DNA of 64,000 nucleotides, taken from positions 77,866 through 141,865 of the forward strand of contig MU271190.1 of assembly GCA_021432655.1 (NCBI GenBank), read 5' to 3'. This DNA is from Atractiella rhizophila (taxonomy: Eukaryota). Under the pieces are notes generated by a model. That model was not told where the DNA came from. It was given only the letters and a program-made list of their open reading frames with translations, and did not search any database. Made by a program: the position numbers and the translations under genes. Positions 1 to 56,239 of the stretch are shown in pieces; position 1 is the first letter of the stretch; every line of letters begins with the position of its first letter.

Positions 1-2262
1 GTTCGCTGCGACAAGTTTGATTCTTTTGCCAGGCTTGCAGACCACATATGCCACGATGTCTTTGCACTGCCCCAATCTAGCGAACCACTTAAAGTCTTGG
101 CTGACTACTTCAAACGTCGAAAATGTCTTCTCGTTTTGGACAATTTTGAAACTCCTCTTCGTGCTAACAAGGGCAAGATCCAAAACTTCTTTCGAACTCT
201 TCTATCGGATAACTCAAAGAAGTCGGACAACTCAAAAGCGTCGGTACTCGTCGTGGCCCATCGGGGAAATCAAGTGGAACGTTTGGATGTGAAGGGGGAC
301 AAAGCTGTAAAGTTTGTCAAGGTCTCAGTTGGTGCTTTGCCAGAAAATGGTGCACTCACACTCTTCGAAAATTCATATCAGAGGGAAGACGAGTTCTCAC
401 TACCACTGGTCCAGCGCCTAGTGAAACAGCTAGATTTCCATGCTCTGTCAATCAAGCTATTTGTTCTACGAGCCAACAGGGATTCAACCATGACACTTGA
501 ACAATTGGCAGACAAGTGGGAGGAAAAAAAGACTGGCATTCTTTGGAACAAACACAGCGAAGACACAATCACGCTTGAAACGTCCATATCATTCTCCCTC
601 GACTCTCCGGCTCTCAAAGAAGAGGGAGAACGTGGACTCTTTGTGCTTGCTCTGCTGTCATGGGCTCCCGACGGTCTAACCCATGACGATTTGTCAGCCC
701 TCATTTCCGACTCTTATGAGTCTGAGAACATCTTCCAAGTTATTGATGTAATTTCAACGATTGGGCTTGCTGATGACTTCAAAGACACTCTCCGTATGCT
801 CGCTCCTATTCGCGAATACCTCAACCACCTTGTGTCTCGTTCCGAATCACCATTTTCGATGACTGTACCTACGTCACTCCTGCCGCTTGTGCACCATCTC
901 ATGGGAAAAGCTGAGGCAAACATCAAACAGTTCGAGGTCGGCAAGAATCGTGATGCACTGCGTCTCTTCCGTGAACAGTACCCAAATCTTGAACATGTCC
1001 TTCTCACAGGCATGTTGAACCTACCTGATCCTTTATCAATCCTACAGCACTTGGAGAACACATCTGAGTTCCTACGCCTGAAACATCGGCTCTCGACTGC
1101 ACTCTTCCAACAGGCAATGCACATTGTGAACACGTGGCTAGGAACAACATGTTCACCGGATCACAGACAGACCAAATGGTTAGAACTAAAGCGTTCACTG
1201 ACGCAATCTCTTGGTTATTGCTATTTCAGGTTAGGTGAGAACCAGAATGCGCGGATAAAATTCAAGGAGGCGAAGGAGCTCTACATAGTTGTGGCAGATC
1301 GACAGGGTCAAGCCAACTGTGTCTTCAACATCGGAGAGATCGATTTTCGATGTGGGCGGAATGAGGATGCTCTGAAGGCATACAAGGAGGCGAAGGAGCT
1401 CTACATAATCGTGGGAGATCGACTGGGACAAGCCCACTGCGCCTTTAACTTTGGGGAGATCAATTTTGGACGTGGGCAGAACGAGGATGCTCTGAAGGCA
1501 TACAAGGAGGCTAGGAAACTCTATGAGGAAGTGGGATATCGACAGGGTGAAGCCAACTGCATCTTCAGCATTGGGAAGATCAATTTTCGATATGGGCGGA
1601 ATGAGGATGCTCTGAAGGCATACAATCAGGCGAAGGAGATCTACATAGTCGTAGGAGATCGACTGGGTCAAGCTAACTGCGCCTTCAATGTGGGGGAGAT
1701 CAATTTTCAATATGAGCAGAACGAGGATGCTCTGAAGGCATACAAGGAGGCGAAGGAGCTCTACATAATTGTGGGAGATCGACTGGGACAAGCCAACTGC
1801 GCCTTTAACTTTGGGGAGATCAATTTTGGACGTGGGCAGAACGAGGATGCTCTGAAGGTGTACAAGGAGGCGAAGGAGCTCTATGTGGAAGTGGGATATC
1901 GACAAGGTGAAGCCAACTGCATCTTCAATATCGGTAGTATCAATTTTCGATGTGGACGGAATGAGAATGCTGTGAAGGCATATAAGGAGGCGAAGGAGCT
2001 CTACATAATCATGGGGGATCGACTGGGTCAAGCTAACTGCATTTTCAACCTTGGGAGGATCGATTTTCAATGTGGGCGGGACAAGGACGCTCTGATGGCG
2101 TTCGAAGAGGCAAAGGAACTTTATAAGGGAGTGGGCTACCCAGGAGGTGAAGAAATCTGCCAGAGATTAATAGGTGATGGAATTTGTGTCATTAGGGGTG
2201 AGTGTGGCACTGCAGGTGAGCAGAGCAGGTATACGAGATGTCCATGGCTGATTGCACTATAG
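1..2262 (+). CDS. NLR-like STAND NTPase with C-terminal TPR array, 5'-truncated by the window edge (NLR-A)
   Basis: Frame is open from base 1 (VRCDKFDSFARLADHICHDVF...). It has Walker B LLVLDNFE, DFHALSIKLF and LRMLAPIREY, then seven 40-aa repeats (GDRLGQANCxFNxGxIxFxxGxNEDALKAYKEAKELY). Colinear with the 25582-29181 ORF. Walker A and the N-terminal domain lie outside the window. Confidence 0.9.
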   Translation, partial: VRCDKFDSFARLADHICHDVFALPQSSEPLKVLADYFKRRKCLLVLDNFETPLRANKGKIQNFFRTLLSDNSKKSDNSKASVLVVAHRGNQVERLDVKGDKAVKFVKVSVGALPENGALTLFENSYQREDEFSLPLVQRLVKQLDFHALSIKLFVLRANRDSTMTLEQLADKWEEKKTGILWNKHSEDTITLETSISFSLDSPALKEEGERGLFVLALLSWAPDGLTHDDLSALISDSYESENIFQVIDVISTIGLADDFKDTLRMLAPIREYLNHLVSRSESPFSMTVPTSLLPLVHHLMGKAEANIKQFEVGKNRDALRLFREQYPNLEHVLLTGMLNLPDPLSILQHLENTSEFLRLKHRLSTALFQQAMHIVNTWLGTTCSPDHRQTKWLELKRSLTQSLGYCYFRLGENQNARIKFKEAKELYIVVADRQGQANCVFNIGEIDFRCGRNEDALKAYKEAKELYIIVGDRLGQAHCAFNFGEINFGRGQNEDALKAYKEARKLYEEVGYRQGEANCIFSIGKINFRYGRNEDALKAYNQAKEIYIVVGDRLGQANCAFNVGEINFQYEQNEDALKAYKEAKELYIIVGDRLGQANCAFNFGEINFGRGQNEDALKVYKEAKELYVEVGYRQGEANCIFNIGSINFRCGRNENAVKAYKEAKELYIIMGDRLGQANCIFNLGRIDFQCGRDKDALMAFEEAKELYKGVGYPGGEEICQRLIGDGICVIRGECGTAGEQSRYTRCPWLIAL
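1294..2133 (+). repeat. 120-bp tandem coding repeat (7 TPR units) in NLR-A
   Basis: Sequence recurs every 120 bp, e.g. tacaaggaggcgaaggagctcta at 1381, 1741 and 1861. Confidence 0.95.
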
Positions 2263-13005: not shown

Positions 13006-14724
13006 TTAAGCGTCCCCCGACTCTCGAAGCCATGTAAATTTCTCATTCTTGCGCACCCCAAAATCTTTCATTGTTCTCCACGCCATCCTAATCTCCTCGT
13101 CATGCCACTCCCCAAAGAATAAAAGAACACTTAAACTCCCTCCGCTCCATTTTCTCTCCTCTTGGTGTTCATCTCTCTGGCCGCCTGTTGCTTCCTTACG
13201 ATCCGCAAAGAACCAGCGGACGAAATCTGGGAAGTAGAGCGAGTCCACTCCACAGTACTCGATGCCTACATCTTCTAACGCAGGAAGATATGTGAGAATA
13301 CGGAAAAACTGGCGGGAAACAAGGTTGGTAGTATCCTCGCCACCGTCGAGGGTTAGGGATTTCAGCCGTTTAAGGTGTGATAAGTCGAGGGGAGTGGGTA
13401 ATATGGAGGTATTTTCCGCAGCTGAGAATGGTGCGAGCTGAAGCTTGAGATCCTCTAGAGAAGGAGGCAATGAAGATCCTGAGATGGCCTGCGGGAGCGG
13501 ACACATGTTTTCGAGATGTAGGCGAGAGAGTCCGTCTGGGAAGGAGAGGGATGACAGAGGCGGATAACTGTCAAGTACCAAGTCTATGAAGCTAGGGGAT
13601 AAGTGCAGACCCGCCGAAGCAGAAGAGGGAGAGGAGTCTTCCACTTGAGAAGCGCTGAGACGTTTGATCCTCGGGTTCATTCTTCGCATAAAGTTCTCCA
13701 CCTCATCCTTCCTCCATTTTCTCAAACCGTTACAACCAAACGACACCGATTCCAGTCGCTTCAAGCCTTCAATTATATTTAACATAGCCTCTAGCTCTTC
13801 TCCATTCCAAAATGCATCCAAGGACAAGATGGTAACATTCGGCGAGCCAACAATGAGCGCCTGTAAGGTCCTAACACTCATATGTTGTCTAAATCGGAGG
13901 CTGCTCCACAAACGTCCAGCGTAAGGATAGAGTTTCAAGCAAGCATGTTTAACGTCCGAATACAAAGGTTCGCTTCGATAGGGGATTGAAACACGCCACC
14001 AGAGCTTGCAGATGGGAGATATAGATGTTCCGATGTCGTCATCTTCGAGGAAACTGAATATGCAAGAGAGGAGCTCGAAAGATAGTTGTGAGATGGAGCA
14101 TGAAGCAACTCCAGTTGTTGAGGAGACCGAAAATTGGACAGTGGTCCCATTACTCAGGTAGGAGGTTGAGCAGGTCGATGCTTCGTCATCGCTGATCGGA
14201 GTGAGCTGCCATTCGTCATTCTGGCATTTGGCAACCGGAGCGAAGATGGCCTCAGAGGGATTTTCTAAGGGGAGGTGAAACGTGCGCGTGAAGCGCTCCG
14301 TATAAACCCAGGCATCCTCGCGCGAATCATCAGAAAAGTCGACGGTATCGGTATCCGAGTTAGATGAATCGGATGAATCAACAGACGAATCGGATAAATC
14401 AACAGATGAATCGAGGGATTCGACGTCTGCACCAAAGGTTATCGCGAGAAGTTTCCGGTCCAAGGTGATGCAAATGTCTGCTACCCCTTCATATCCGATT
14501 GCATCTGCGAGACATTCAGCTGGGAATTCGACGAGCTGCGACGGCATCGCAGGTAAGAACTCCTTAATCACGAATCGAAGGACAAAAGTAATGCGGAGGG
14601 TGTGAATCGATGGAGGTAAGCATGATAAGAAAGATGGGAGAATGGATACCTGGAGCAAGGAGAGGAGCACTTTCGGGGAGATGAGGTTGGCGTGAGCGAT
14701 TAAGGGTTCACATTCCTGAGTCAC
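13006..14724 (-). CDS. F-box / LRR-like protein (intact, intronless family member)
   Basis: F-box-like ISQLSFELLSCIFSFL...ISPICKLWWRVS followed by LxxLxL repeats; colinear with the three copies at 47-60 kb. Confidence 0.8.
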   Translation of the reverse strand: MTQECEPLIAHANLISPKVLLSLLQVSILPSFLSCLPPSIHTLRITFVLRFVIKEFLPAMPSQLVEFPAECLADAIGYEGVADICITLDRKLLAITFGADVESLDSSVDLSDSSVDSSDSSNSDTDTVDFSDDSREDAWVYTERFTRTFHLPLENPSEAIFAPVAKCQNDEWQLTPISDDEASTCSTSYLSNGTTVQFSVSSTTGVASCSISQLSFELLSCIFSFLEDDDIGTSISPICKLWWRVSIPYRSEPLYSDVKHACLKLYPYAGRLWSSLRFRQHMSVRTLQALIVGSPNVTILSLDAFWNGEELEAMLNIIEGLKRLESVSFGCNGLRKWRKDEVENFMRRMNPRIKRLSASQVEDSSPSSASAGLHLSPSFIDLVLDSYPPLSSLSFPDGLSRLHLENMCPLPQAISGSSLPPSLEDLKLQLAPFSAAENTSILPTPLDLSHLKRLKSLTLDGGEDTTNLVSRQFFRILTYLPALEDVGIEYCGVDSLYFPDFVRWFFADRKEATGGQRDEHQEERKWSGGSLSVLLFFGEWHDEEIRMAWRTMKDFGVRKNEKFTWLRESGDA

Positions 14725-15378
14725 GGTGCCTTGAAAGATGATTGGTGTTTCCTGCTCAAGCCCTTCCTGAGAAAAGATTCCTGACTGTAACCCATAAATT
14801 TAAGTTAGACGAGAAGATGATGGAGCCAAGTCAAAGACAGAGATCAGATCAGATCTTGCCTGGGTTGCATCACCACAGGATGCTTGCGCTGGAGCCATCT
14901 CCACTGTCGCCAATATTTGTAGCAAGACCGATCTCGCCTAGGAACAGCGGATCAGCTGTTTGCAATGGCATTTGTCATACACAGCGACGTGTACACAATT
15001 TCAAGCTGCTCTTCAAGAACACCAAAAAATGGCAGTTGGCATGAGCATGACTCAACCGGCGGCAAGCCTGCGGTTCGATTAAGAAGCCGAAGGGCGACGA
15101 CGCGTTTTGGTTTTGACGACGGCTCTCTCTCCTGGTTCAAGTTGGTTTTCATCCAAAATATCCGCTGACGCCAACATCAGCTATTTAAATCAACACTGGA
15201 CACCTACAATTGCATTTACGTGCAACGAGGGTATCAAGCGAAACAAGTACGTTTTCCTGCTTCTTCGAACCACAAGCCCGAAAATTGATAAATTCTCGTT
15301 GGAACAGCCATCCGAATCGAGTTACGACGTGGACACGTTGAACTCAGCTCAGCTATAAGCAGGAAAGGCACGGGGTCG

Positions 15379-24481: not shown

Positions 24482-27400
24482 ATGTCTACGACGAATCCCG
24501 TGAAGGTGTTCAAAGTCCCTGAAAACGTCAAGAAAGCGAATCCACTGGGCCTACGGATCCTCTGCATTGACAATGGAGGCGTGGGCACTTTCTCAGCTCC
24601 GTACATGCTCGAATCCATCATGCATCAAGCCGCACATCTTCTCAACGTACCAGATGATCAAGAGCTTCGGCCTTGCGACGTCTTTGATCTCATTTGTGGA
24701 ACATCTACTGGCGGATGGATCGCACTTCTTCTCGGGAGACTGGGGCTGACTGTTCGCCAGTGCATTACCGCATATGAAGAAATTGCGCGCAATGTCTTTC
24801 GAGACGAGGATTCAGACCCCAGCGGCGCGTTCACGTACTCGGCGAAGAAGCTCGAAGAGACTTTGATTGCCATCATCCAGCGACACACGTATTCTTCCGA
24901 AGATTCTGCCAAGTCACTTCCAATGAAGGATCCTTCTCTGGCAGACAGATGCAGAACGTTTGTCATGTCCGCCTATGAGGCAACTGTTGTCGTGTCCACA
25001 GAGATGCGTACTTACGATATTCTCGTATCTGCCCCTCGCTTTGCTTGTCCGTATTCCGTCTGGCAAGCCGCAAGAGCCACCTCAGCTCGTGCTCCCTTCT
25101 TTCCTCCTATGAGGGAGGATTCTATCGCCTACGTCCAGCTAGGAGACAACAACCCTGCCGCAGTAGCTTTCGACGAGGCTATGCGAATTTGGGGACGCAA
25201 CAATGAGATTGCCTGTCTTGTGTCTCTTGGTCCCGGGGTCGCTCGAGCTGTCAAGTTGGGCCACACTCGGGATGATGTCGAACATGCGTTGAAGGCTATA
25301 ATCGCGGATTGCTCACGGGTTTCGAACGAAGTGAAGGGGAAGATGCAAGATGGTGGAACGGGTCATTGCTATCATCGGTTCTCGGTTGATACATTTGGAG
25401 ACTTCAAATGGGAGGACTGGGAGCGAAAGGAGGACGCTGTAGGCCACACGAAGGCTTACATGGAAGCGATGAATCATGAAGTAGCTTCCGCGGCTAGGTC
25501 ACTTGTGCAAGGTATTCTCCATGATTGCATCATTGATACCCGCTGACTTCCACTTGTTCAGACTGTAAGGAACGCATTGCAGTGCGCAGGAAGCTTCCAC
25601 TACCTCGTCTGGGGGCTTGTTACGGAAGAGTTGAAGAAGTTAAGGAGGCGCTCGACTGCATCCTCACTGACCGGAAGCATCTTGCAATCATCGGTGGCGC
25701 TGGCAACGGGAAGTCTACTGTAGCTCGACAAATCCTGCATGCCAAGAAAGTCAAAGATGCATTCTCGACAATTGTGGAGGGTACGAGGGAAGACTTTCGG
25801 TTCTGGGCACGATGCGACTCTTTCTTTACGTTCTCATCTCTCTCTACAAACCTTTGCAAGGAGGTATTCGGAATACCTCCTTTGGCTGGCGAAGACTACC
25901 TCGCTGCTGTCGCAAGATATTTTGGCAGTCACAAATGTCTCCTGATCTTGGACAATTTCGAAACCACCGCGGAATCAGACATGGAGAATCGACAGTCATT
26001 CTTTCAAGCACTTCTTTCCGTCAACCATATCTCGGGGTCCATTGTCATTGTGGTACATCGAGGACATCAAGTCTATCAAGTGGACGTCACAGCTGTGAAA
26101 TTTGAAGAGCTGACGATTGGGGGCCTAACCGATGCTGCCGGGCTGGACTTGTTCAAGTTCACATACACCGGAAAAGAAGATTGTGCGCAAGAGCTGCTCA
26201 AGATCATTTTCAACAAGTTGGATCATCACACCTTGTCTATCAAGCTTTTTTTTCTTCGTGCGAACGGATCAACGAAGCGGATCTCGGCCCTCTTGAAGGA
26301 GTGGGAGGATGTGAAGACGCAGGTGCTGTGGGACAGGGGCAGTAAAGAGACTCCAACCCTCGCCGGTTCCATATCCTTTTCACTTAGGTCACCTCTTCTC
26401 ACAATGCATGAGGACCTGAGCATGTTTATTCTCGCTGTCCTATCCTGGACTCCGGACGGGCTGCTGGAAGATGACATTAGAGCTATTATGGAGACATCCT
26501 GTCTGCCTGATTTGAAGGAGTCTGACATGGTCATCGCCTCTGTTTTGTCCGTTGGACTCGCAGAAAACACAGATGATGCTATGGGAAACTCGACGCGGTT
26601 GCGCATGCTTTCACCGATTCGTGAATACATCAACCACTTAGTCCTGCGTTCCGATATTCCGTCGATAACCATCACATCGTCCCTGCAGCCCATAACTGAG
26701 TACTTCATTGACAAAGCACGGAGAAATGTTCGTCGATTTGAAGTTGAGGGTGAGCGGATAGGGCTGTCAACTTTTCGCAACGATTATCCAAACTTTGAAT
26801 ATATTCTTCTAGCTGCTTTCGAACATCTGCAAGACCCAACAACTATGGTCCAATTTCTAGTTGGAATTTGTGATTTTCTCAATCGGCAGCACTTCCTCCT
26901 CTCAATCAAATTATTCCAGCAGGCACGGTCCATCGCGAAATCTATATGGTCTCCACTGAAATATACTGCCAAATTGACGATGTTTCTGGGGTTGGCATTC
27001 AAATATCAGGGGATTCTACAGCAGGCCCTGACACATTTTGAGGAGGCGAAGGAGCTATATGTGCTAGTGGAAGATCAGCAGGGACAAGCCAACTGTATTC
27101 ACGGCACTGGGGAGATTGAGCAGTATCGTGGGCATATTGGGGAGGCATTGAAAAGATTCGAGGAGGCAAAGGAGCTGTATCTGCTGGTGGAAGATCGGCA
27201 GGGACAAGCGAACTGTATCCACAGCTTGGGGAACATCGCACAGCATTGCGGGCGCATGGAGGAAGCAAGGAAATGTTTCGAAGAGGCGAAGGAGCTGTAC
27301 CTTATTGTTGAAGATCGGCATGGGCAAGCCCACTGCATTCGGAGTGTGGGGAAGATCGAGTTGCATAGGGGGCAGATAGATGCAGCATTGAAATGTTTCA

Positions 27401-29181
27401 AGGAGGCAAAAGAGCTATACTTGGTGGCAGAAGATCAGCAGGGGCAAGGACACTGCATTCGGAACATGGGGATGATCGAGCAACGTCGTGGACACATGGA
27501 GGAAGCGATGAAATGTTTCGAAGAGGCGAAGGCCATGTACCTTGTGGTGGGAGATCGGCAGGGTCAAGCCCACTGCATTGTGAGCATGGGGGAGATGGAG
27601 CACCATCGAGGCCGGATGCAGGAAGCGCTGAAGCGATTCGAGGAGGCAAAGGAGCTGTACCTGATGGTGGAAGATCGGCAGGGACAAGCCCACTGTATTC
27701 ATGGCATGGGGAAGATTGAGCAGCGTCGTGGGCAGATGGAGGAGGCGCTGAAACGATTTGAGAAGGCAAAGGAGCTATGTCTGATGGTGGAAGATCGAAA
27801 GGGACAAGCCAACTGTATCCATAACATGGGGGAGATCAAGTACCATTGGGGGCAGATGGAAGAAGCGCTGAAACTATTTGAGGAGGCGAAGGAGCTTTAC
27901 ATTATGGTGGAAGATCGACTTGGGCAAGCCCATTGCATTCGGAATGTGGGTAAGATCGAGCATCATCGCAGGCGGATGGAGGAAGCGCTCAAGCGATTTG
28001 AGGAGGCGAAGGAGCTGTACCTGGTGGTGGAAGATCGGCAGGGGCAAGCCCACTGCATTCGGAGTGTGGGGAAGATCGAGCAGTATAGGGGGCAGATAGA
28101 TGCAGCGTTGAAACATTTTGAAGAGGCGAAAGAGCTGTATGTGCTGGTGAAAGATTGGCAGGGACAAGGTAACTGCATTCATGGCATTGGGCGGATCGAG
28201 CAGCATCGCGGACAGATGGAGGAAGCGCTGAAACGATTTGAGGAGGCGAAAGGGCTGTACCTGATGGTGGAAGATCGACAGGGGCAAGCCAACTGTATCT
28301 ACTGCCTGGGGAAGATCGAGCAGGGTCAGGCACAGATGGAGGAAGCACTGAATCGATTTGAGGAGGCAAAGGAGCTGTACCTGATGGTGGAAGATCGGCA
28401 GGGACAAGCCCACTGTATTCATGGCATGGGGGAGATTGAGCACTGTCGTGGGCATACAGAGGAAGCGCTGAAACGATTTGAGGAAGCGAAGGAGCTGTAC
28501 CTGATGGTGGAAGATTGGCAGGGGCAAGCGCACTCCACTCAGTGCATGGGGGAGATTGAGCAGCATCGTGGGCAGATGGAGGAAGCACTGAAGCAATTTG
28601 AGGAGGCGAAGGAGCTGTACCTGATGGTGGAAGATTGGTGGGGACAAGCTTACTGCATCTGGAACCTAGGGGATATCGAGCAGGATCAGGGACAGATGGA
28701 GGAAGCAGTGAAACACTTTGAGCATGCGACGAAGCTATACCAGGTGATGGAAGAGCAACTGGAACAAGCCCGCTGTCTTCATAGGATTGGGATGATTGAG
28801 CAGCAATGCGGACGGACGGAGGAAGCCCTGAGATGTTTCCAGGAGGCAAAGCACCTGTATATGAAAGAGGAAGACATTAGTGGTCAACTTAGCTGTCTTA
28901 CTAGCATCAGTTCCGTTTATGCTCAAAACCGCCAGAACACATCCAAGGTGATTCAGCCTCTCGAGGAAGCGGTCAATTTGTGTAAGACTGATGGTGGCTA
29001 CTTTGAAGCTCTCAGCAGGCTGAATCTGGGGAAACTCCTGTTCTGGTCGTCCCAGTTCCGCTCCGCAGAGGAGGAAATCACTCGTGCCCGTCAGCTTTAT
29101 GCAGATTGTTTTGCCAGCTCTGATGTCGACATATGTGATAATCTACTGCAGAATATTTGGCAGGTGGAAGGATCGACTTAA
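24482..29181 (+). CDS. Patatin-STAND NTPase-TPR NLR-like protein (NLR-B), ~1549 aa, one intron 25512-25561
   Basis: Patatin fold (LRILCIDNGG, FDLICGTSTGG, WQAARATSA, NNP, CLVSLGPG) is joined in frame by a 50-bp GT..gctgac..AG intron (LVQ-D-CKERIAVRRK) to Walker A GGAGNGKST, Walker B LLILDNFE, LRMLSPIREY and 14 conserved plus ~2 degenerate 40-aa TPRs. Confidence 0.92.
27070..28870 (+). repeat. 120-bp tandem coding repeat (~15 TPR units) in NLR-B
   Basis: gaagatcggcagggacaagc...gaggaggcgaaggagctgtac recurs every 120 bp. Confidence 0.95.
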
Positions 29182-35050: not shown

Positions 35051-38000
35051 TCACAAATTGACCACATCTTTCTGACAAGAATTGCTGACAAATGAATTGC
35101 CTGTATGTGAACTCTAATAACTCAATAGTGTTATTTGGCACACTTCTGAAATGCCCAGAACATCTTTGACCTGGGTGAGGTTTGAGCTCCATGAAAGAGT
35201 ATAGGGGGGAATGGAAAAGACTTCCTGGTCTCCTTCTTGTAAGAGTATATACCTGTGTTCTGGCCCTTTGTCACTTTCATCTACAGCCCTCTGGCTGTGC
35301 TTCAGTATGCCTCCTCCAATTCTAACATTGTAGTTTGAGGAACCCGACTAGAAGTTAGCGCAAAATCTACTCGTAGTCCCCCTCCTGTCCCCTCGTGCAG
35401 TTAAGGCTTGCTTTCTACCCTCTCGTGTCTGGGGACATGGGTAAGGTAAGATAGGTGTTGGAGAGTCGGCTTAATCAAGATTGTAAGGGGACTTGAAAAA
35501 GGTGTGGTTAATACGGTGCTACACCAGAACTTGTACTGTACTGATTTGAAGTCAGCTGAACCGCTGTCTCTCCTCTCATGCACGGTGAGATGATGATTCA
35601 TACACGTGAGATGATGACTGTTAATGATTGACAACGGGCACGCGGCCAAACAACCCACGTATTCTCTTAAGTTAGGAAATTTACCGCCTGAAAAGCAGTC
35701 ACCATGGTAGAGAGCAAGTCATTGAGCTTGAAGAACATCCTGCAAAATGGCGATGGTGATGACTTGATCAATTTGCAAGACTTCAATGGCCATTTGGACG
35801 AAACTGAAGGAGAAGCATCCACCTCTCACATGACAGAGGGATATTGCGTCGAATGTGAAGGTATGTCTATCTAAGCCTCCAAAAGGAGAGGATGCTCAAG
35901 CTTTGGACCAAGACCAGCCAGCTGAGATACACTGCGAGACATGCGAGGATAGTTACTGCTCTGTCGTGCGTCCTTCCTCCTTTCCAATACTTCGGTTTAG
36001 CAAGCTGAATGGCGTATGGCCCTAAGTGTTTTCAAAGCCAACATCGCAAAGGGAAGCGAGCAAAGCATGCCACCCGATTGCTCGTCCCAACTACAGTCAC
36101 CAAAAATATCTCCTCGCAGGTATCTCAGACAAATGGCCATTCATCCTCGAAGAAAGAAGAAGATGCGGAAGAGATGGACACGGACTCCTCTGACGACGAA
36201 TTAGAAGCTTCGTACCAACACGCCTCTGTACCTACTCTACCATCGGTCTCCAACACAGCGACAACAAAACATGCGCAGTCGCCGGCCTCCTTTGTCGAGC
36301 GAGCGAAATACATACCAATCCGTCTCACTCTCACGGAGCGCAAAATGCTTCGTCTCCTCGAGGCGGCTCTTTCGGTTTCGGAATATACTGATAAAGTGGA
36401 TATTATGCTGTGGGGTAAGAGCAGGACGAAGAGGATCGTGGCGCAGGTGAAGGAGATTTGTAGCATAATTTCTGGACTTTTAGTAGCAGCCGACTATTCC
36501 CAAGGACAGGAGCTTTTTCGTGCCTTTTCCTCGCTCATCTCACCTCACATTGACGTTTACAAGCAATGCAGAGTCTCGAGATTTCGCAAAGAACGCCTCT
36601 TTCTACCAGCGTATATTCGAGATTGGTCGTCGACACAAGATCATGAATCCGGAGAAGATGCGGACCACCTACTTGAAGCTGATGTATATGTTGCAAGACT
36701 CCCTCGATCCCGAGATCGCAGAGATGCTCGAGTTCTCCACCTTCACTCCAATAAAGACCGTATACACAACTTTAGACGAGCTCAACTGCTTGCCGTTGCT
36801 TGAGGAAGAAACCCTCGCAACCGCGACGCAGGAGATCCTGTCTGCTGGACGGTCCAGGAGAGAGGTCCAATCTTCGATTCGGGCGAAGGAGCGAGCAATA
36901 GAACGGCTGTCTACAAAGTACGCTAGATTGAGTGAGGCGGATGAAGAACTGGTGAAGACCTGCATCTACTCGATAGGGGACAACAACGCCTTTCTGCGAG
37001 TGAACCGGGATCCGTGCCTCAAGCTCATTGAGTGGCTGAAGAAGTTCTTCCATCCCACCACGGCAGTAGAAGGGAGGAATCTCAGCATCAGGGCAGGAAA
37101 GAATGGCGCGCGATTGACCCATGGCCATGAGAGACAGTACGCTTATTGTCTCCAAAGTCTCACGCTGTGGTCTCAGATCCTCGAGAGTTCGTCCGTTCTC
37201 ACAAAGTCGTTCTACCATTGATGCTATGATGCGCGTGATAGACATGTTCGAGCTATGGTCGCTCGCTGAATCCGACCTCCTCTCTGACAAAATATTCTAT
37301 CGCTTGAAGGACACTGGACAGGGATTGAACAGAGTGCAAGCGGCACCAAAGACGAGCAGGAAGATGCATGAGATCTTGCACAAGGCTCAGAGCAGTGTGA
37401 AAGTATTTCGAACCAGAGAGAGAGAGTAGAAAATATCATCGATAAGAGGGAGACGGTAGGCATCTTTTTTATGACAGAATTAAGGGCACTGTAGTTGATG
37501 CAGAACCACCAAGAGCCATTGCTTTTGGTGATGAGGATGACAGGAGAGGAGTATGGTGACTGGGAGTGTTTGATGATGCCTTGGTCAAGCATGTTGTACA
37601 CTTGCTTGTTGATCTCCCATTGTTTCATAAAATTGGCACAATGGGCTCTGGCTGAGGGTGGTAGCTTCCTGTCTCCAATTCCGATTCTAAACTCCACCTC
37701 TCTCGTCGTTCCCAGCTCCTCTAATCATTTCACAAATTGACCACATCTTTCTGACAAGAATTGCTGACAAATGAATTGCCTGTATGTGAACTCTAATAAC
37801 TCAATAGTGTTATTTGGCACACTTCTGAAATGCCCAGAACATCTTTGACCTGGGTGAGGTTTGAGCTCCATGAAAGAGTATAGGGGGGAATGGAAAAGAC
37901 TTCCTGGTCTCCTTCTTGTAAGAGTATATACCTGTGTTCTGGCCCTTTGTCACTTTCATCTACAGCCCTCTGGCTGTGCTTCAGTATGCCTCCTCCAATT

Positions 38001-40081
38001 CTAACATTGTAGTTTGAGGAACCCGACTAGAAGTTAGCGCAAAATCTACTCGTAGTCCCCCTCCTGTCCCCTCGTGCAGTTAAGGCTTGCTTTCTACCCT
38101 CTCGTGTCTGGGGACATGGGTAAGGTAAGATAGGTGTTGGAGAGTCGGCTTAATCAAGATTGTAAGGGGACTTGAAAAAGGTGTGGTTAATACGGTGCTA
38201 CACCAGAACTTGTACTGTACTGATTTGAAGTCAGCTGAGCCGCTGTCTCTCCTCTCATGCACGGTGAGATGATGATTCATACACGTGAGATGATGACTGT
38301 TAATGATTGACAACGGGCACGCGGCCAAACAACCCACGTATTCTCTTAAGTTAGGAAATTTACCGCCTGAAAAGCAGTCACCATGGTAGAGAGCAAGTCA
38401 TTGAGCTTGAAGAACATCCTGCAAAATGGCGATGGTGATGACTTGATCAATTTGCAAGACTTCAATGGCCATTTGGACGAAACTGAAGAAGGAGAAGCGT
38501 CCACCTCTCACATTACAGAGGGATATTGCGTCGAATGTGAAGGTATGTCTATCTAAGCCTCCAAAAGGAGAGGATGCTCAAGCTTTGGACCAAGACCAGC
38601 CAGCTGAGATACACTGCGAGACATGCGAGGATAGTTACTGCTCTGTCGTGCGTCCTTCCTCCTTTCCAATACTTCGGTTTAGCAAGCTGAATGGCGTATG
38701 GCCCTAAGTGTTTTCAAAGCCAACATCGCAAAGGGAAGCGAGCAAAGCATGCCACCCGATTGCTCGTCCCAACTACAGTCACCAAAAATATCTCCTCGCA
38801 GGTATCTCAGACAAATGGCCATTCATCCTCGAAGAAAGAAGAAGATGCGGAAGAGATGGACACGGACTCCTCTGACGACGAATTAGAAGCTTCGTACCAA
38901 CACGCCTCTGTACCTACTCTACCATCGGTCTCCAACACAGCGACAACAAAACATGCGCAGTCGCCGGCCTCCTTTGTCGAGCGAGCGAAATACATACCAA
39001 TCCGTCTCACTCTCACGGAGCGCAAAATGCTTCGTCTCCTCGAGGCGGCTCTTTCGGTTTCGGAATATACTGATAAAGTGGATATTATGCTGTGGGGTAA
39101 GAGCAGGACGAAGAGGATCGTGGCGCAGGTGAAGGAGATTTGTAGCATAATTTCTGGACTTTTAGTAGCAGCCGACTATTCCCAAGGACAGGAGCTTTTT
39201 CGTGCCTTTTCCTCGCTCATCTCACCTCACATTGACGTTTACAAGCAATGCAGAGTCTCGAGATTTCGCAAAGAACGCCTCTTTCTACCAGCGTATATTC
39301 GAGATTGGTCGTCGACACAAGATCATGAATCCGGAGAAGATGCGGACCACCTACTTGAAGCTGATGTATATGTTGCAAGACTCCCTCGATCCCGAGATCG
39401 CAGAGATGCTCGAGTTCTCCACCTTCACTCCAATAAAGACCGTATACACAACTTTAGACGAGCTCAACTGCTTGCCGTTGCTTGAGGAAGAAACCCTCGC
39501 AACCGCGACGCAGGAGATCCTGTCTGCTGGACGGTCCAGGAGAGAGGTCCAATTTTCGATTCGGGCGAAGGAGCGAGCAATAGAACGGCTGTCTACAAAG
39601 TACGCGAGATTGAGTGGGGCGGATGAAGAACTGGTGAAGACCTGCATCTACTCATTAGGGGACAACAACGCCTTTCTGCGAGTGAACCGGGATCCGTGCC
39701 TCAAGCTCATTGAGTGGCTGAAGAAGTTCTTCCATCCCACTACGGCCGTAGAAGGGAGGAATCTCAGCATCAGGGCAGGAAAGAATGGCGCGCGATTGAC
39801 CCATGGCCATGAGAGACAGTATGCTTATTGTCTCCAAAGTCTCACGCTGTGGTCTCAGATCCTCGAGAGTTCGTCCGTTCTCACAAAGTCATTCTACCAT
39901 TGATGCTATGATGCGCGTGATAGACATGTTCGAGCTATGGTCGCTCGCTGAATCCGACCTCCTCTCTGACAAAATATTCTATCGCATGAAGGACACTGGA
40001 CAGGGATTGAACAGAGTGCAAGCGGCACCAAAGACGAGCAGGAAGATGCATGAGATCTTGCACAAGGCTCAGAGCAGTGTG
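34722..40081 (+). repeat. Near-identical tandem duplication, ~2.68-kb unit (34722-37399 / 37401-40081)
   Basis: Both units start aagtatttcgaaccagagag and end caaggctcagagcagtgtg; roughly 15 substitutions and one 3-bp indel by eye. Confidence 0.95.
35704..37399 (+). pseudogene. 3'-truncated duplicate of the B-box/DUF2009 gene
   Basis: Same exons as 38383-40081, but runs into RT-relic sequence after ...HKAQSSV. Confidence 0.8.
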
Positions 40082-47179: not shown

Positions 47180-48885
47180 TCACTCCTCCCCACCCTCCCG
47201 AACGATTCTATATGCACCCTTCTTGCTCACCCCAACCTCTTTCAAGGTACTCCTTGCCTTGCATATCTCGTCCTCAAGCCACCCCCCAAAGAATAACTGA
47301 ACCATAAAGACGGGTGCTCTCGTCGTCTTCACCTTTTCAGCACCATCCACCGTATCCCCCTCCTCCTTCACCCCCCTGTACCCAAAGAACCAGCAGATGA
47401 ACTCTGAGAATACGAACCCTGTGAATCCCCAGTCCACCACACAATACCGAACTTCTATCATTTCTATCGCTTTTGCATTTCTGAGGGTGTGGAAGAACTG
47501 GGGGGAAACGAGGTTGGAAGTTTCCTCACCACCGTCGAGTTTAAGGTATCTGAGATGTTTGAGGTGTGATAGGTCGAGCGGAGTTGGTAGGATGGAGGTC
47601 TTTCCATCCGGCAAGTAGGGGGCGAGGGTGATCTGGAGCCTATCTAGAAGAGGCGGTAGACAGGAGCCTGAGACGGAGGGGGGGGAGGGGACACAGTTTG
47701 GAGAGATACAAATCCGTGAGGGTGAGTGGGAGAGAGAGCAATGGGAGAGGCGGGTATGTGTGAAGCAATAGACTTTTGAGGCCAGATGATAATTGAAGGC
47801 CTCGTGATGTCGACGAGGTAGAGTCATCCACGTCCCAAGCTCGCAACAATCTGATCGTGTCACCGATCCTCCACATAAAATTCTCGACCTCATCCTTCTT
47901 CCACTTTCTCCAACCTCGCCTTGCAAATCTTACGTCATGCAGCCTCGTCAAGCCTTCAATCGCATGCAACACAATCTTTGCCTCCTCTTCATTCCAAATT
48001 GCGCTCATCTCTATCTCCGTTACATTCGGTGCGCCCGCGATGACGTCTTTCGCCATCTCAACGCTGATGTCATCGTCAAACGAGAGAAATGTCCACAAAA
48101 CGCCCAGCATTAGGATAAGCTGTCAAACCAGCATGCTTCTCCTTCACAGGAACATGTATACTCGAATATGGGGCTGAAACAGCCTTCCAAAGCTGACACA
48201 CCGCAGAAAGTTGCTGGAAGGAAAAAAGACTTTTGCTTTGGCTAAGTGAAAGGAAATCGAAGATGAGAGAGAGAATCTCGGTAGGCAGCTGTGTGATACT
48301 GCATAAACGAATACCTGTAGGTCGAGTTGTGGAGAGGGAGAGTTGGATGGTTGTCCCCAGACCGGTGGATGGGATGGTTGATTCCTCCCATTCGCTGAGA
48401 GGAATGAAACGCCATTTCTCGTTGGAGTATAGGGCAACGGGTTCAAAGAGGACCTGAGAGCGATTATCGGGAAGATGAATAGTGCATGTGAAGGGTTTCC
48501 GAGACAGGCGCTCCAATTCCACGGATGCATGATATTTGGCATCCCCAAAAGTCACCGCAATACTTTCCTCCTCCAACGCGATGCATAAACTCCCTGTACC
48601 GTCGGGTTCGACTTCATTTTCGAGACCTGCCAGAGAGAAGTAGGATGATTTCGACGGCCCATAACCCTTGCTCCAGAAGTCAATAGGCAAGACAAATGTG
48701 ATCCGGAGCATGTAAATTGATGGAGGTAGGCGAGAAAGGAAAGAGGAGAGAATGGAGAGGTGGATCGGAGTGCCATGTTCTAACAGTACTGGGGTAATGA
48801 GATGGACCAGTGCGATGGACTCTGTCCCCTGATCATCCTTGCATGAAATCGATGTTTTTCTTCTTTTCATTCTTGGAGATAACAC
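47180..48885 (-). pseudogene. F-box/LRR-like paralog, frameshifted near 48100 and 47680
   Basis: ITQLPTEILSLIFDFL...LSAVCQLWKAVS; protein split across three overlapping ORFs. Confidence 0.8.
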
Positions 48886-51800
48886 GCTTGACTAGAGCCC
48901 GCAAACGCACATTAAACGAGACAACAAGGGGAGAGATCGGATCATGCCTGCAGGGCATCAGTGCATTGTCCAACTTGAACCATCTCGACATTCTCCGCGA
49001 AATGATCAGACTGATCAAATATCACCAATCGTGAAGATAGAGATCGCATAACCGTTTGTGGGAGTCGATGGATTAGGCGACCGTTTGCGATTAGGATGGT
49101 GGTTGGGTGGAAGGTAGCGTCCGGACGTTGAAAGCTTTGGTTCTAGAGCACTAGACTACCAGATAGTGTCATAGGGCGTCCTAGCATATGTAAAGGAACT
49201 GAAATCCTTTGCAATACTAGCACCTAAATTACACTGCAATTCAAACGAGAGCCAGAGCAGAACACTTTGATATTGATGCTTCGTCCCCTAATGATCTGAC
49301 TGTGAGAAGGAAGGCTGGATCGATAGGGCTGGGACAGCCATGGACGGCAGTTACCTATCTGGACGACAGAGGAGGCAGAAGAAACTATTGGCGAGAACAT
49401 AGATGACACTTGAGTCACGAGCGAGAGAAAAGAGGGATGGAGGACGGAGCCTCAGGAGCACAAGACGACCAACCTAGATGTCCACTTGTGGTCCCTGATG
49501 CAACACTGCACACTTTGTCCCCTCTTTCTCCATCAGCCATTTCATTGTTGCCCTCAATATCATGAAGCAAGCGTCGGTGGAAAAGAGCCATGAAGTGCAA
49601 GCCGGAGTGCGATTGAGGGTGGGGTGCGAGAGAGAATAGGAAGGCGGCATGGGGACACGGGGAGGCATAGGATGACGAGGGATGGCGAGGGAGTGCGAAC
49701 GGACCGGCGAGACAAAGTGTGACGCAAACCTGCGACATCTCATCTTGACTATGGACCCAGTGTCACTTCTTCCTTCCGCTTTCGCTATCGAACGTTTAAC
49801 CTCCAGTCCCCGCTCAACTTCCGGGCTAGGGGCCTGTGGAGTGCGATAGGAGGGAGAGTGAGACTGCCAGGAAAGGGGAGCGGCGGAGCAAGGGACCTAG
49901 TGTGCATGGCAGTTAAGACACTTGGAGCGGGGAGAGAGGAAGGGAGAAACGAAATACACTGCCAGCAGAAACAAAACCCCAACAGGCCAGAATGCGAAAG
50001 AGGCGGGGGCGTTGGTGGAAGGCGAAATGAAGCGTGAACGTTAGCGGAGAGGGATGAGAGGTGGTGCGAGAGGGTATCTGAGGCGAAAGGACATGACGGA
50101 GAGTGGGACAGACGCCAGGACAATCCTTCTCACGTCTTTCTTCCATCACCCACCACGTTCCCTTTATTCCCCTCTGTCCACCGTTCAGCCATTTAATGTG
50201 TCCCCTGTGCTCTGTATTGATATTAAATGACCAGTATGCGAGGTAAAGGCTTCAGTGGAGAGGAGGTGACTTGTCTAAGCAAACAAGCCGCGATGGCGAA
50301 AGTTGGCGGCGTGAGTTGGGGCTTGGCGGTGTCGCAGTCTTCCATCAAATGCCCTACGCTTCGCGGTTGGTTTCTAATGTCTAGTGCGAAGCAAGGCGAA
50401 GGACGTGGGCGTGAGGGATGATGTTGGAGAGCGAGGTGAAACGGGAGGGCAATGGTGGGTGAGAGAAAGCATACCATGCTCATCCGACGTCAATCCTCAA
50501 TCTGCACCGTTCTGTCACCTCCGCCTCTGCTTTCGCGATCCGACGTCCAGCTTTCACGCGCCGTTCGTTGCGGAGTGCACAGAAGTTGCTGGAGGAGCAG
50601 AGGAGGACGGATGGCGAGAGTAGCACGGAAGCGAGGCAAGAGGGATGTTGGAGCGAGAGGGGCAGGTGTACGGGAAGCGTGAAAGGGGGACAGATCGGAG
50701 CAGGTAGTGAAACTGGTGCTGGACGGCGCTGTCCTGTCTCCTTTTTGCATCCCACGCTTCCCTCGCACTGCTCTCTCGTTTCGAAGCCCCATCACCGAAG
50801 GTGACTCGGAACAGTGGGAGGGTAGACGGGTTTTGTGCTGGGTCGGCGAAGCAGGAGTCAGAGCAGTGATGAGCGTACAGGGTGAGGGGACGAGGAATCT
50901 GATCCTTATGTCATCAAGCACAAATGCAAAAGAGGGAGAGGGGGAGGGAAGGCACCTCTTCTCTCGCACCTGGCTTTGCTATAAAAGTGTTAGCCCTCCG
51001 TTGACTATAATTGGATCCATACCTGGCCTCTCTTTCGCCCTTACTCGCTCGTTCTTGCCCTCCACTGCACATCGCGTGCATCCTTTGTCGTGCTATGCCG
51101 TCCTCAGGCGCACTTTCACTGGGCAGCAGATCAGCAATGCTCGCATCTTCCTTTTCAGTCAGTGTTGTCTGTCGTGGTCTCGTGCTTCGCTCTCCCCTTT
51201 CCATCTCTGTCACACTTCAACTAACTTTTATGTACGATCTGTTCACAATGCATCTCAGTTCCCCTTCCTTCTTCGCACTGGTTGTACTCGTCCATTCATT
51301 ACTCGCTTACGCCAGCGCTACCAATTACATAAGCCTTCGCGTGTGGGAACAGTACGTGAGCAAAAAGGATGACGGTGGAGGATAGCTGAGGTGAAAGAGG
51401 AACGTGGAAGAGAGCGGAGCTGGAGATGACGAAGTAGACTGAAACAGGAGAGGGACACCAAACCAGCCAAAATGAAGGAGACCGGGGACGGTGAGAGGAT
51501 GCGAGATCGAGAGAGGCGAAGAGCCTGTGAGAAAGGAGCGAACTGAAAGGGTGAAGGGCGGGAACCAGGAACGACGGCCGAGATATAATGGATGAGGAAT
51601 GAAGGATAGAAGGCGTGAAGAGCAGTGGGTGTGTTGGAGACTGCACGCAGAGGGCGGTGGAGTAGACACGAAGACACAACAAGGTGGCGATCGTAGAAAA
51701 TCTTTCAACTACGTGACACTTTTCGTGCAACGATCTACCCAAACAAAGACTGTCGCGATTTACACCTCACCGCCGTGTTTCCCATTCCCGTATGGCCTTT

Positions 51801-52887: not shown

Positions 52888-54607
52888 TCATTCCTCCCCA
52901 CCCTCCCGAACCCATGTATTTATATCCTCCTTGCTCACCCCACACTCAATCAACATGCTCCTAGCCTTGCATATCTCTTCCTCAAGCCATCCTCCAAAGA
53001 ATAGCCGAACCCTCAACTGGCGTCCTCTCATCGTCTTTATCTTTTCAGCTCCATCCTCCATATCTTCATCCTCCTTCACCCCCCTGTCCCCAAAGAACCA
53101 ACAGATGAAGTCTGAGAATACAAACCCTGTCACTTCCCAGTCAACCACACAGTACCGAACATCTATGATGCTCATCGATTTTGCATTTCTGAGGCAGTGG
53201 AAGAACTGGGGAGAAATGAGGTTTGAAGTCTCCTCACGACCGTCGAGCTCGACGGTTGTGAGAGCTCGACGGTTGTGAGATGTATGAGGTGTGATAAGTT
53301 GAGTGAACTGGATAGGATGGAGGTTTTTCCAGCAGGCAAGTAGGGGGCAAGCATGATCTCGAGATATTCGAGGAGACGCGGCAGACAGGAGCCTGAGACG
53401 GAGGGAGGGAGGGGACAAAGGTGGGAGAGAATCAGCCGTGTGAGGGAGAGTGGGAGGGACAGTGATGGGAGAGGCGGGTATGTGTGAAGCGTTAGGCCTT
53501 CGAGGTCAGATGATAATTGAAGGCCTAGTGATGGCGACGAGGCAGAGTCCTTGACATCGAAAGCACGAAAGGTTCTGATCCTGTCACCCATCCTCTGCAT
53601 AAAATTCTCGACCTCATCCTTCTTCCACTTTCTCAAACCTCGCTCTCCAAAGGTTACCTTATTCAACTTCCTCAAGCCTTCAATTGCATGCAACACACTC
53701 TTCGCCTCCTCTTGATTCCAAAATGCATCCATATAGACGCCCGTAACATTCGGCAAGCCAGCGATGACGTCTTTCGCCATCTCAACGCTGATGTCATCGT
53801 CAAGCTGTTTCATAAACCAGAGGGATGTCCACAAATATCCAGCATTAGGATAAGCTGTCAAACGAGCATGCTTCTCCTTTACAGAAACATCTTCATTCAG
53901 ATAAGGGACTGAAACAGCCCTCCAAAGCTGACAGACGGCAGAAAGTCGCTTGAAGGAAACGAGATATCCAGTACCATCTATGAGCCCTTCAGATTCATCG
54001 AATGAAAGAAGCTCGAAGATGAGTGAGAGGATCTCAGGAGGAAGGTGTGTGATACTGCATAAACTAATGCCTGTAGGTTGAGTTGTGGAGAGGGACAGTT
54101 GGATGGTTGTCCCCAGACAGGTGGATGGGATGATTGCTTCCTCCCATTCACTGAGAGGAATGAAATGCTGTTGCTCCTTGGAGTATAGGGCAACAGGTTC
54201 AAAGAGGACCTGAGAGCATTATCTGGAAGATGAAAAGTGCATGTGAAGGGCTTCCGAGACAGGCAGTCCAATTCCACGGATGCACGACGTTTGGTATCCC
54301 CAAAAGTTACCATAATACTTTTCTCCTCCAACGCAATGCAAAAAATCACTGCACCGTCGGGTTCTGCTTTATTTTCATGACCTTCCAGAGAGAAGTAGGA
54401 CGATTTCGAGGGTCCATACTTGAGCTTCCAGAATCGAATAGGTAAGACGAACTTGATCCGGAGCGTGTGAATTGATGGAGGTAGGCGAGAAATGAAAGAG
54501 GGAAGAATGGAGAGGTGGATCGGAGTGCCATGTTGTAATTCTGCTGCGGTGATGAGATGGATCACGGCGATTGACTCTGTCCCCTGATCATCCTTTGGTG
54601 AAATCAA
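52888..54607 (-). pseudogene. F-box/LRR-like paralog, frameshifted near 54215 and 53260
   Basis: Colinear with the other copies; a 17-bp-period tandem duplication (ctcgacggttgtgaga x2) at ~53248-53280 breaks the frame. Confidence 0.8.
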
Positions 54608-56239
54608 TCGTTCCTTCTCAACGTTTCCCGGAGATGCACTCGACTGAAGCTCACGAATTCATGTCAAATGAGACAAGAGAAGGGGAAAGATCATATCATG
54701 CCTGCAGCGCATCAGCACGTTGTCCAGCCATCCCGACGTTCTCCGTGCAATGATCAGGCCGATCAAGCATCATCGTGAGGAGATCGTAAAGCCGTTCGTG
54801 GGAGTGAATGGGTTGGGTTAGGTGACCGTTTGAAATTAGGACAGATATCGATGGTGTTGGTGGAAGTCGGTGTCCGGACGTTCCAGACTACTTGACAGGA
54901 TTGCGAGGTGGTGCCACAGGTCGTGCTAAAACATGTCAATGAAACGAACTCCTTAGCAATACTAGAATTAAATTACACTGTGATTCAAACGAAAGCTGTA
55001 GCAGAACAGTCTGATCTCGATGCTTCGTCCCACAATGACCTGATTGTGAGAGGAAGGATAGATAGGCAGTTAGGGATCAGAGTGACAGAGGAGGCAGAGG
55101 AGGTTACTTGCCAGAACTTAGATGACACTTGAGTGAGTAGCGGTATGGAGGGCAGAGGCTTAGGAGCATGAGAGGTGCAGGCCTAGAGGTCCACTTGTGG
55201 TCCCTGATCCAACACTGCCCACATTGTCCTCCTCTTTCTCCATCAGCCATTTCATTGTTGACCTCGATATCAGGAAGCAAGTGGGTGGACATCAGAATGA
55301 AGGGTGAACCGCGGCGGAGGTGGAGCGAGAAGGTAAGTGAAACAGAAGGAGTGGGACAGACACCGTGACAGTCCATGTCCTTCTGCGATCACCGATCGAA
55401 TTCGTCCCTCTGCCCACCTTTTTTGTCATTTGCAGTGCCTCCCGTAGATGACCGTACGTGAGAGAAAGGGGGAAGGCTTGGTGAAGGGGAAGGGGTTGCC
55501 TAGGCAATGGTAGGGAAGGGGACGGTACTTCTTCTCTCGTACCTCTCTGCCCCTCCATCTCTGTCACACTTCGCCTTCCATTATGCACCATTCTGTTGGC
55601 AATGCATCTTATTCCCTCCCTTGTTCGCACTGATTGTACATGTCCATTCATCACTTGCCCACACCCCCATCTACCCTCCCTGCGCCACCCAACCCTGTCG
55701 AGCCTGCTCTGTCACCAGCTGTCCAAGTACTTTGGTTCGTACCGACTCCATCACCCGTCGTCTAGGAAGAGTCCATCAGCAAAAGAGGACGATGGGGGAT
55801 AGCCGTGGTGAAGGGTACTGTGGAGGAGAGAGGAGCTGGAGGCGATGACGAAGTAGACTGAACCAGGAGAGGGACACCAGAACCAGCCAGACTGAAGGAG
55901 ACCAGCGAGACGGAAGAGAGGTGAGGCGTGTGACTGCATGAACGAAACAGATGGCTCAGAGTGAGGGTGGAGGGAAGGGCGGCGGACTCGGAGATCGAGA
56001 GACGATGGAGATGAAGGACGGTCGGAGACGGTGTACTACTGAGTGCTTGCGGAGGCGGAGGAGATGAAAGGATGAGTGGTGCTGATGCTCAGTTTCGGAG
56101 GACTAACAGAAAACTCATTCGCTTCGCTTTCACACGTCAAATTCGGCGTTCCCAACGCGCAAGATCTTACGAGACACCAGTCTGTCTTCCTTTCTTTCCT
56201 ATGTTCAACTTGCAACTAATCAAAAAATGGATGCAGGAT

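Follow-up and report, generated by a model that had tools for sequence, protein, structure and literature searches.

The patatin–STAND–TPR gene of Atractiella rhizophila described here raises the question of what an NLR does with an N-terminal patatin head in which the nucleophilic Ser is kept and the catalytic Asp is lost. In patatins the Ser is activated by the Asp of DG(A/G), and the oxyanion hole is supplied by the glycine loop (PMC12871566). The patatins of fungal NLRs are classed in PMC4986451 as effectors that act directly as enzymes, and cell death by PLP-1 needs both patatin activity and the P-loop, as described in two reviews (PMC12881547 and bioRxiv 2022.04.03.486892). All coordinates below are positions in the window, the whole 64,000-nt stretch of contig MU271190.1 that was analyzed.

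Gene anatomy and transcripts

The gene and its parts are laid out as follows.

24482..29181, + strand: patatin–STAND–TPR NLR gene, intact and spliced, 1,549 aa
24482..25511, + strand: exon 1, Asp-less patatin-like domain, residues 1-343 (PF01734, E 2.9e-13; fold match)
24569..24589, + strand: altered glycine/oxyanion loop DNGGVGT, residue 30 on, canonically DGGGxRG (translation)
24698..24718, + strand: nucleophile elbow GTSTG, residue 73 on, followed by the clade-specific Trp79 (GTSTG itself at 24698-24712)
24704-24706, + strand: Ser75 codon, within GTSTG
25076..25096, + strand: ATSARAP, residue 199 on, canonically ATSAAP (translation)
25130..25156, + strand: former catalytic-Asp loop YVQLGDNNP, residue 217 on; the Asp column is Q219 and two residues are missing
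25512..25561, + strand: intron, GT..AG, 50 nt, separating the patatin exon from the NB exon (absent from a contig of run X7)
25562..29181, + strand: exon 2, STAND nucleotide-binding domain, helical region, TPR array and stop (profile matches)
25693..25716, + strand: Walker A GGAGNGKS, residue 388 on, intact (translation)
25939..25962, + strand: Walker B LLILDNFE, residue 470 on, intact (translation)
27037..28859, + strand: TPR array, 15.2 units of 120 bp (40 aa), with few variable positions per repeat (repeat finding)

The first-pass annotation had placed four motifs in the head, DNGGVG from 24569, GTSTG at 24698-24712, ATSARAP, and YVQLGDNNP at 25130-25156, in an ORF that it took to be otherwise intact, including Walker A and B; translation of the spliced CDS, with a single stop at its terminus, bears this out. 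Of the features of active PNPLA proteins, the head has GxSxG (as GTSTG) and lacks both the DG(A/G) Asp and GGGxRG, which here reads NGGVGT. Pfam profiles match exon 2 with E-values of 1e-5 (NACHT), 7e-4 (NB-ARC) and 3e-89 (TPR_12); the NACHT and NB-ARC matches are weak and below the curated cut-off, so the domain is assigned at the level of STAND. Within the TPR repeat, positions 22, 26 and 30 each carry six residues among 14 repeats, and eight positions are invariant. In NLRs generally, sensing falls to a variable TPR array and oligomerization to the STAND domain, and the array of this protein is likely the sensor.

The transcript evidence comes from run X7, a run of unrecorded kind that possibly derives from the same isolate. 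One X7 contig skips exactly 25512-25561, with flanks showing zero and one differences. Another spans 24901-25411 with a single difference and includes the short Asp loop, so the short loop is no assembly slip; a hidden intron inside the loop, also considered, is ruled out by this contig running across it. Together the two contigs show that the short loop occurs in a spliced message. Of 119 X7 contigs on the window, 79 are less than 90% alike to it, which points to transcription of paralogues as well. Runs X1, X2 and X4 gave only pieces of 151-271 nt, with zero or one difference and none over the Asp loop, and do not count as evidence of transcription.

An AlphaFold2 model of the head (pLDDT 75, pTM 0.83) matches potato patatin 1oxw with a Z of 25.3 and an rmsd of 3.6 over 284 aligned positions, and also matches iPLA2-beta, CapE and CapV (Z 23-25 across matches). 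The pLDDT is below 50 at residues 213-221, and in a model of an intact paralogue the loop is ordered (pLDDT 92-96), although this carries little weight, as the alignments differed between the two models and many active patatins have a flexible Asp segment (PMC12871566).

The window holds several other repeated elements. A second NLR of the same clade, linked to the patatin locus L086, occupies 1-2262 (+ strand) with its NB-TPR part, in which 1263-2117 consists of seven repeats of 120 bp; the Asp-less patatin of this NLR falls immediately outside the window, before position 1, and is split over two frames. A piece of a DUF2009-family gene occurs twice, at 35576-37221 and 38255-39903, a duplication with a spacing of about 2.7 kb. 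Related ORFs on the - strand at 13006-14799, 47180-48891, 52888-54658 and 58845-60302 represent another expanded, partly broken family, one member of which has a weak F-box-like match (E 4e-4).

Loss of the Asp loop across the family

A search of the same genome returned at least 120 matches (118 of 237 candidates scored), 18 of those 120 with stops. From 90 loci examined, 71 domains spanning the Ser elbow as well as the Asp loop were retained after removal of one duplicate, and 60 of these form one clade in a quick tree (SH-aLRT 95), with the Asp in none of the 60. Selection was analyzed on 48 full-length, stop-free, non-identical clade members, leaving out stop-containing copies, two identical ones and a single outlier. 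Throughout this set the stretch from Y to P of the Asp loop is nine residues long, against 11 in three of three intact paralogues, a shortening by six bases, and D is absent from column 219 (0/48). The loss that had seemed peculiar to one gene therefore affects 48 of 48 paralogues. Nor does the Asp of GDNNP, once suggested as a substitute, hold that place in the family, since D222 occurs in only 5/48 and the column holds 12 different residues. The equivalent catalytic Asp is present in 124 of the 136 patatin representatives from outside the lineage, so its loss is no chance divergence.

The oxyanion loop has changed as well. Position 31 is N in 42/48 clade members vs G in 121 of 128 dyad-intact references; the loop Arg is found in 13/48 vs 117/128, and Gly36 in 3/48 vs 123/128. 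Position 203, A in 118/128 references, is free to vary in the clade, where it holds ten different residues. Trp79, in contrast to the L or I of the references, is present in 48/48. Ser75 is kept in 47/48 using all four TCN codons, with one amino-acid change per 14 codon changes, and other acid or His columns are also conserved: D213 (47/48), H295 (44/48), H298 (43/48) and E174 (39/48). With the Asp lost and the oxyanion loop altered in the alignment with same-genome patatins, the earlier reading of a pseudo-lipase holds at the level of sequence, and the head probably has no ordinary lipase activity.

Across the patatin domain, a codon model gives an omega of 0.26 for the 48 stop-free copies, a choice of copies that itself lowers omega. 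By segment, omega is 0.044 at residues 62-91, 0.11 at residues 24-45 and 0.52 in the former Asp loop (residues 210-223). Pairwise dN/dS is 0.14-0.26 by divergence class (dS being defined in 877 of 1,128 pairs), and 0.15-0.32 for the NLR gene against its eight nearest paralogues; synonymous divergence exceeds 2 in 356 of the 1,128 clade pairs. The loop is among the fastest-changing parts of the domain, with 19 amino-acid changes among 22 codon changes at position 222. Thus the former Asp loop is relaxed (omega 0.52, below 1), and the fold and the Ser are maintained. Because the loss is found in 48/48, Ser75 is kept in 47/48 and omega is 0.26, absence of the Asp is an inherited family trait, ancestral in the clade, and not decay.

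The genome carries at least 56 patatin-NB copies, an unusual expansion given that patatin NLRs average 1.7 per species (PMC4986451). Every one of the closest named homologues, at 40-60% identity, carries the label Atractiella rhizophila, and those from other species are at most 35% identical. Three identical Asp-less patatin domains (L040, L041 and L042) lie on two contigs, representing either a recent duplication or an assembly repeat.

Stand-alone patatins and Asp-less patatins of other fungi

Eight of the 71 domains keep the Asp, as labelled from the alignment. An NB match lies downstream of 56 of the 60 Asp-less clade copies vs 0 of the 8 Asp-keeping ones (Fisher p 7e-8, with related and so non-independent rows), the query being the NB domain of the NLR under study, which a very different NB type could escape. 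No P-loop ORF is listed behind any of the eight. Among these copies there is accordingly no candidate for an intact-patatin helper NLR on which the head might depend. Three of the eight are fully canonical (DGGGVRG, GTSTG, YVDGG) and are stand-alone genes, on contigs C70, C68 and C414 of the genome (G000). Two of the three, read over their whole length, are single-exon ORFs of about 377 aa with a terminal stop, and one of these two is matched by the third at 99% of non-synonymous sites. They are about 43% identical to the NLR head and are its closest dyad-intact relatives found. The remaining Asp-keeping copies comprise one that is frameshifted and four with an altered glycine loop. In the 71-domain tree the intact and Asp-less groups are sisters (support 94), a relation not recovered in a wider tree. 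The flanks examined, up to 10 kb on each side of the intact patatins, contain no NB or TPR match; the shortest distance seen to a clade gene, itself a broken copy, is about 22 kb, on C70. The new observation is that Asp-less heads belong to NLRs and fully canonical patatins stand alone.

The genome also holds a cluster of divergent stand-alone patatins (L073, L075, L077, L078, L059 and L060, on C124 and C548) with glycine loops DGGGTWA or DGSGTWA and the elbow GSSTG, two of them without the Asp. In the large proteins represented by a further locus, L071 (on C218), and by P0012 and P0015-P0018, the patatin sits at the C-terminus and is without the Asp; those from rust fungi have Gly for Ser as well. 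These rust-type proteins and L071 were considered as relatives of the NLR clade and rejected, as they form a separate Asp-less lineage in trees.

A profile search yielded 150 representatives, of which 14 were set aside as the own lineage by name or motif. Of the 136 left, 12 lack the Asp, eight of these with a P-loop and ten with Gly in place of Ser; 11 of the 12 carry names, from genera that we take to be all Agaricomycetes. Ten of them, the two tandem proteins being left out on length, fall in four places of a FastTree tree, none with the A. rhizophila clade, which suggests on the tree that Asp-less patatin NLRs arose independently in Agaricomycetes. The Agaricomycete P0034, P0050, P0119, P0123, P0150, P0154 and P0164 are likewise patatin-NB(-TPR) proteins without the catalytic Asp. 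They differ from the A. rhizophila family in that the Asp is replaced by Gly without a deletion, the Ser is mostly Gly, and they lie on other branches. Searches of the available literature, including surveys and reviews of fungal NLRs, found no paper on the Agaricomycete Asp-less patatin NLRs and, in the passages covered, no Asp-less or pseudo-lipase patatin NLR at all.

Hypsizygus marmoreus has an intact patatin (P0176, RDB16828.1) whose accession almost directly precedes that of an Asp-less patatin NLR (P0050, RDB16830.1), and another gene model, P0177, places both in a single chain, followed by NB-ARC and TPR. The two patatins are 47-50% identical internally; this is a single case and may be a plain tandem duplication. 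Neither domain of the tandem proteins P0034 and P0065 has an intact dyad. These two and P0038 (Rhizoctonia, Flagelloscypha) are tandem or double patatins without an intact dyad, P0038 also having a dsRNA-binding motif.

In metagenome relatives (80 kept of 119 confirmed), a motif scan found none with the DN-G glycine loop of the clade. At metagenome loci L166, L169 and L177 patatin genes are clustered in twos or threes, whether tandem, head-to-head or convergent, and L169 includes a copy without the Asp. Locus L166 was tried as an intact and Asp-less pair and rejected, as the match was in the wrong frame and the second copy keeps the Asp.

Possible functions of the head and known systems

Our tentative reading, held at somewhat below even confidence and drawn from sequence comparison, is that the head serves as a non-catalytic adaptor for a protein partner. 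The variable TPR array would sense and the STAND domain would oligomerize the NLR, clustering pseudo-patatin heads presumably incapable of normal Ser-Asp chemistry; the clustered heads would then recruit and switch on a separate executioner. Prime candidates for the executioner would be the canonical stand-alone patatins of C70, C68 and C414, reached through patatin–patatin contact, so that one lipase could be shared by many sensor NLRs. That an intact patatin is the partner bound is possible but doubtful. Stand-alone patatins would be the likeliest executioners because self-association activates patatin domains: CapV is switched on by self-association into filaments (PMC12480259). In iPLA2-beta the Asp segment lies at the dimer interface and needs stabilizing by partners, according to a review (PMC12871566).

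In favor of the adaptor reading are the loss of Asp and loop in 48/48, the oxyanion change, purifying selection, the spliced X7 contig, the single-exon canonical copies as closest dyad-intact relatives, the Hypsizygus arrangement, the self-association of patatins, and the split of labor between Asp-less NLRs and intact stand-alone genes. Against it, the intact patatins have no NLR linkage in the flanks examined, the sister relation of the intact and Asp-less groups is not recovered in the wider tree, the Hypsizygus pair is single, the tandem P0034 and P0065 have no intact dyad, and dyad-less plant pPLAIII enzymes are reported as active. Ser75, moreover, is strongly conserved although the residue is Gly in 10 of the 12 Asp-less representatives of other fungi, and it may retain a chemical or ligand-binding role.

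A rather doubtful alternative is a non-catalytic head without a protein partner, which would bind a lipid or small molecule, target the oligomer to membranes or hold the NLR off, with Ser75, Asn31 and Trp79 lining a re-purposed pocket. The new conserved residues by the old active site (N31 in 42/48, W79 in 48/48), the omega of 0.04-0.11 around the elbow and glycine loop, and the intact patatins unlinked to NLRs are all consistent with this. The elbow, however, belongs to the buried core, and its conservation may reflect folding alone; furthermore, a partner-free head names no executioner and leaves unexplained both the Hypsizygus arrangement and the persistence of canonical copies only as stand-alone genes.

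Retained, non-canonical catalysis is unlikely; in it a different residue, the substrate or an Asp contributed by an intact patatin in a heterodimer would activate Ser75. Conservation of Ser75 in 47/48 despite synonymous divergence above 2 in 356 of 1,128 pairs speaks for it, as do the conserved D213, H295, H298 and E174 columns. However, D213 and H298 are no replacement residues, since intact paralogues carry them too, E174 changes nine times, the oxyanion loop has decayed along with the Asp, and no acidic residue has become fixed in the loop. Plant pPLAIII proteins without the dyad are reported as acyl hydrolases in PMC4623698 and PMC7031755 and lack both Ser and Asp; by analogy with them, the head may have residual catalysis.

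The decoy or sensor role that had been proposed for the head, in which it would mimic a host patatin attacked by microbes and a helper NLR would execute, is very improbable. Intact stand-alone patatins exist as possible models for mimicry and few parts of the domain change faster than the former Asp loop (19/22 at position 222), but the loop omega of 0.52 is not above 1, the variable positions typical of a sensor sit in the TPR array, the patatin is in the N-terminal effector position in 56/60 copies, and the 71 domains include no intact patatin that is part of a helper NLR. Birth-and-death NLR families commonly contain broken copies. A dead or decaying family spreading neutrally, to which the 18 of at least 120 matches with stops and the many fragmented or frameshifted copies would fit, is the least probable reading and is largely refuted for the NLR under study by its 1,549-aa open frame, its spliced X7 contig, the family-wide trait and the omega of 0.26 (lowered in part by choosing stop-free copies), as the view that this gene is not decaying had anticipated.

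If the adaptor reading is right, patatin heads may act as adaptors as well as direct enzymatic effectors. The family of at least 56 Asp-less NLRs, together with the separate losses in other basidiomycetes, means that domain-level annotation probably overcounts enzymatic NLRs. The head and its stand-alone paralogue P0027 make a natural protein pair for asking how enzyme-type NLR heads reach an executioner.

Of the systems already described, PLP-1 (Neurospora crassa), HET-Z1 (Podospora anserina) and VIC2 (Cryphonectria parasitica) have the same patatin-NB-TPR order with an intact P-loop, and the A. rhizophila NLR shares the N-terminal patatin, the central STAND domain with Walker A/B and the C-terminal TPR array of the PLP-1 type. 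In contrast to PLP-1, where catalytic patatin is reported to be required for death, the Asp is lost throughout the A. rhizophila family. The Ser-Asp dyad motifs of a competent patatin are absent at sequence level (no Asp in 48/48), and for this reason the NLR is not filed as a PLP-1-type enzymatic NLR; the definition of that type also takes in SEC-9 SNARE recognition and cell death, a feature of PLP-1. The CBASS effectors CapV and CapE have the same fold (Z 23-24) and are immune death effectors activated by self-association, but they are single-domain, catalytically intact proteins with a cyclic-nucleotide trigger, and involve neither an NLR nor a pseudo-enzyme partner. Plant pPLAIII proteins share the patatin fold and, like the NLR head, often carry another residue in place of the DGG Asp; they differ in having lost the Ser too (GxGxG, vs Ser kept in 47/48 clade members), in not being NLR heads and in being reported as active acyl hydrolases.

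FLIP(L) with caspase-8 is a case in which a pseudo-enzyme paralogue controls a separate executioner, and A. rhizophila has the corresponding feature of an intact paralogue encoded separately. In NWD2 with HET-S, control over a separate executioner lies with an adaptor motif in the NLR. The folds of both pairs differ from patatin NLRs and the likeness is in logic only. It is conceivable, though we think the odds are against it, that a two-part NLR pathway has arisen more than once in fungi, with the pseudo-patatin heads of many sensor NLRs nucleating a patatin–patatin assembly that activates a shared stand-alone phospholipase. If true, the kept Ser could even be completed by the Asp of the partner, and the pathway would be a lipase counterpart of adaptor–caspase signaling and a eukaryotic echo of CapV/CapE filament activation.
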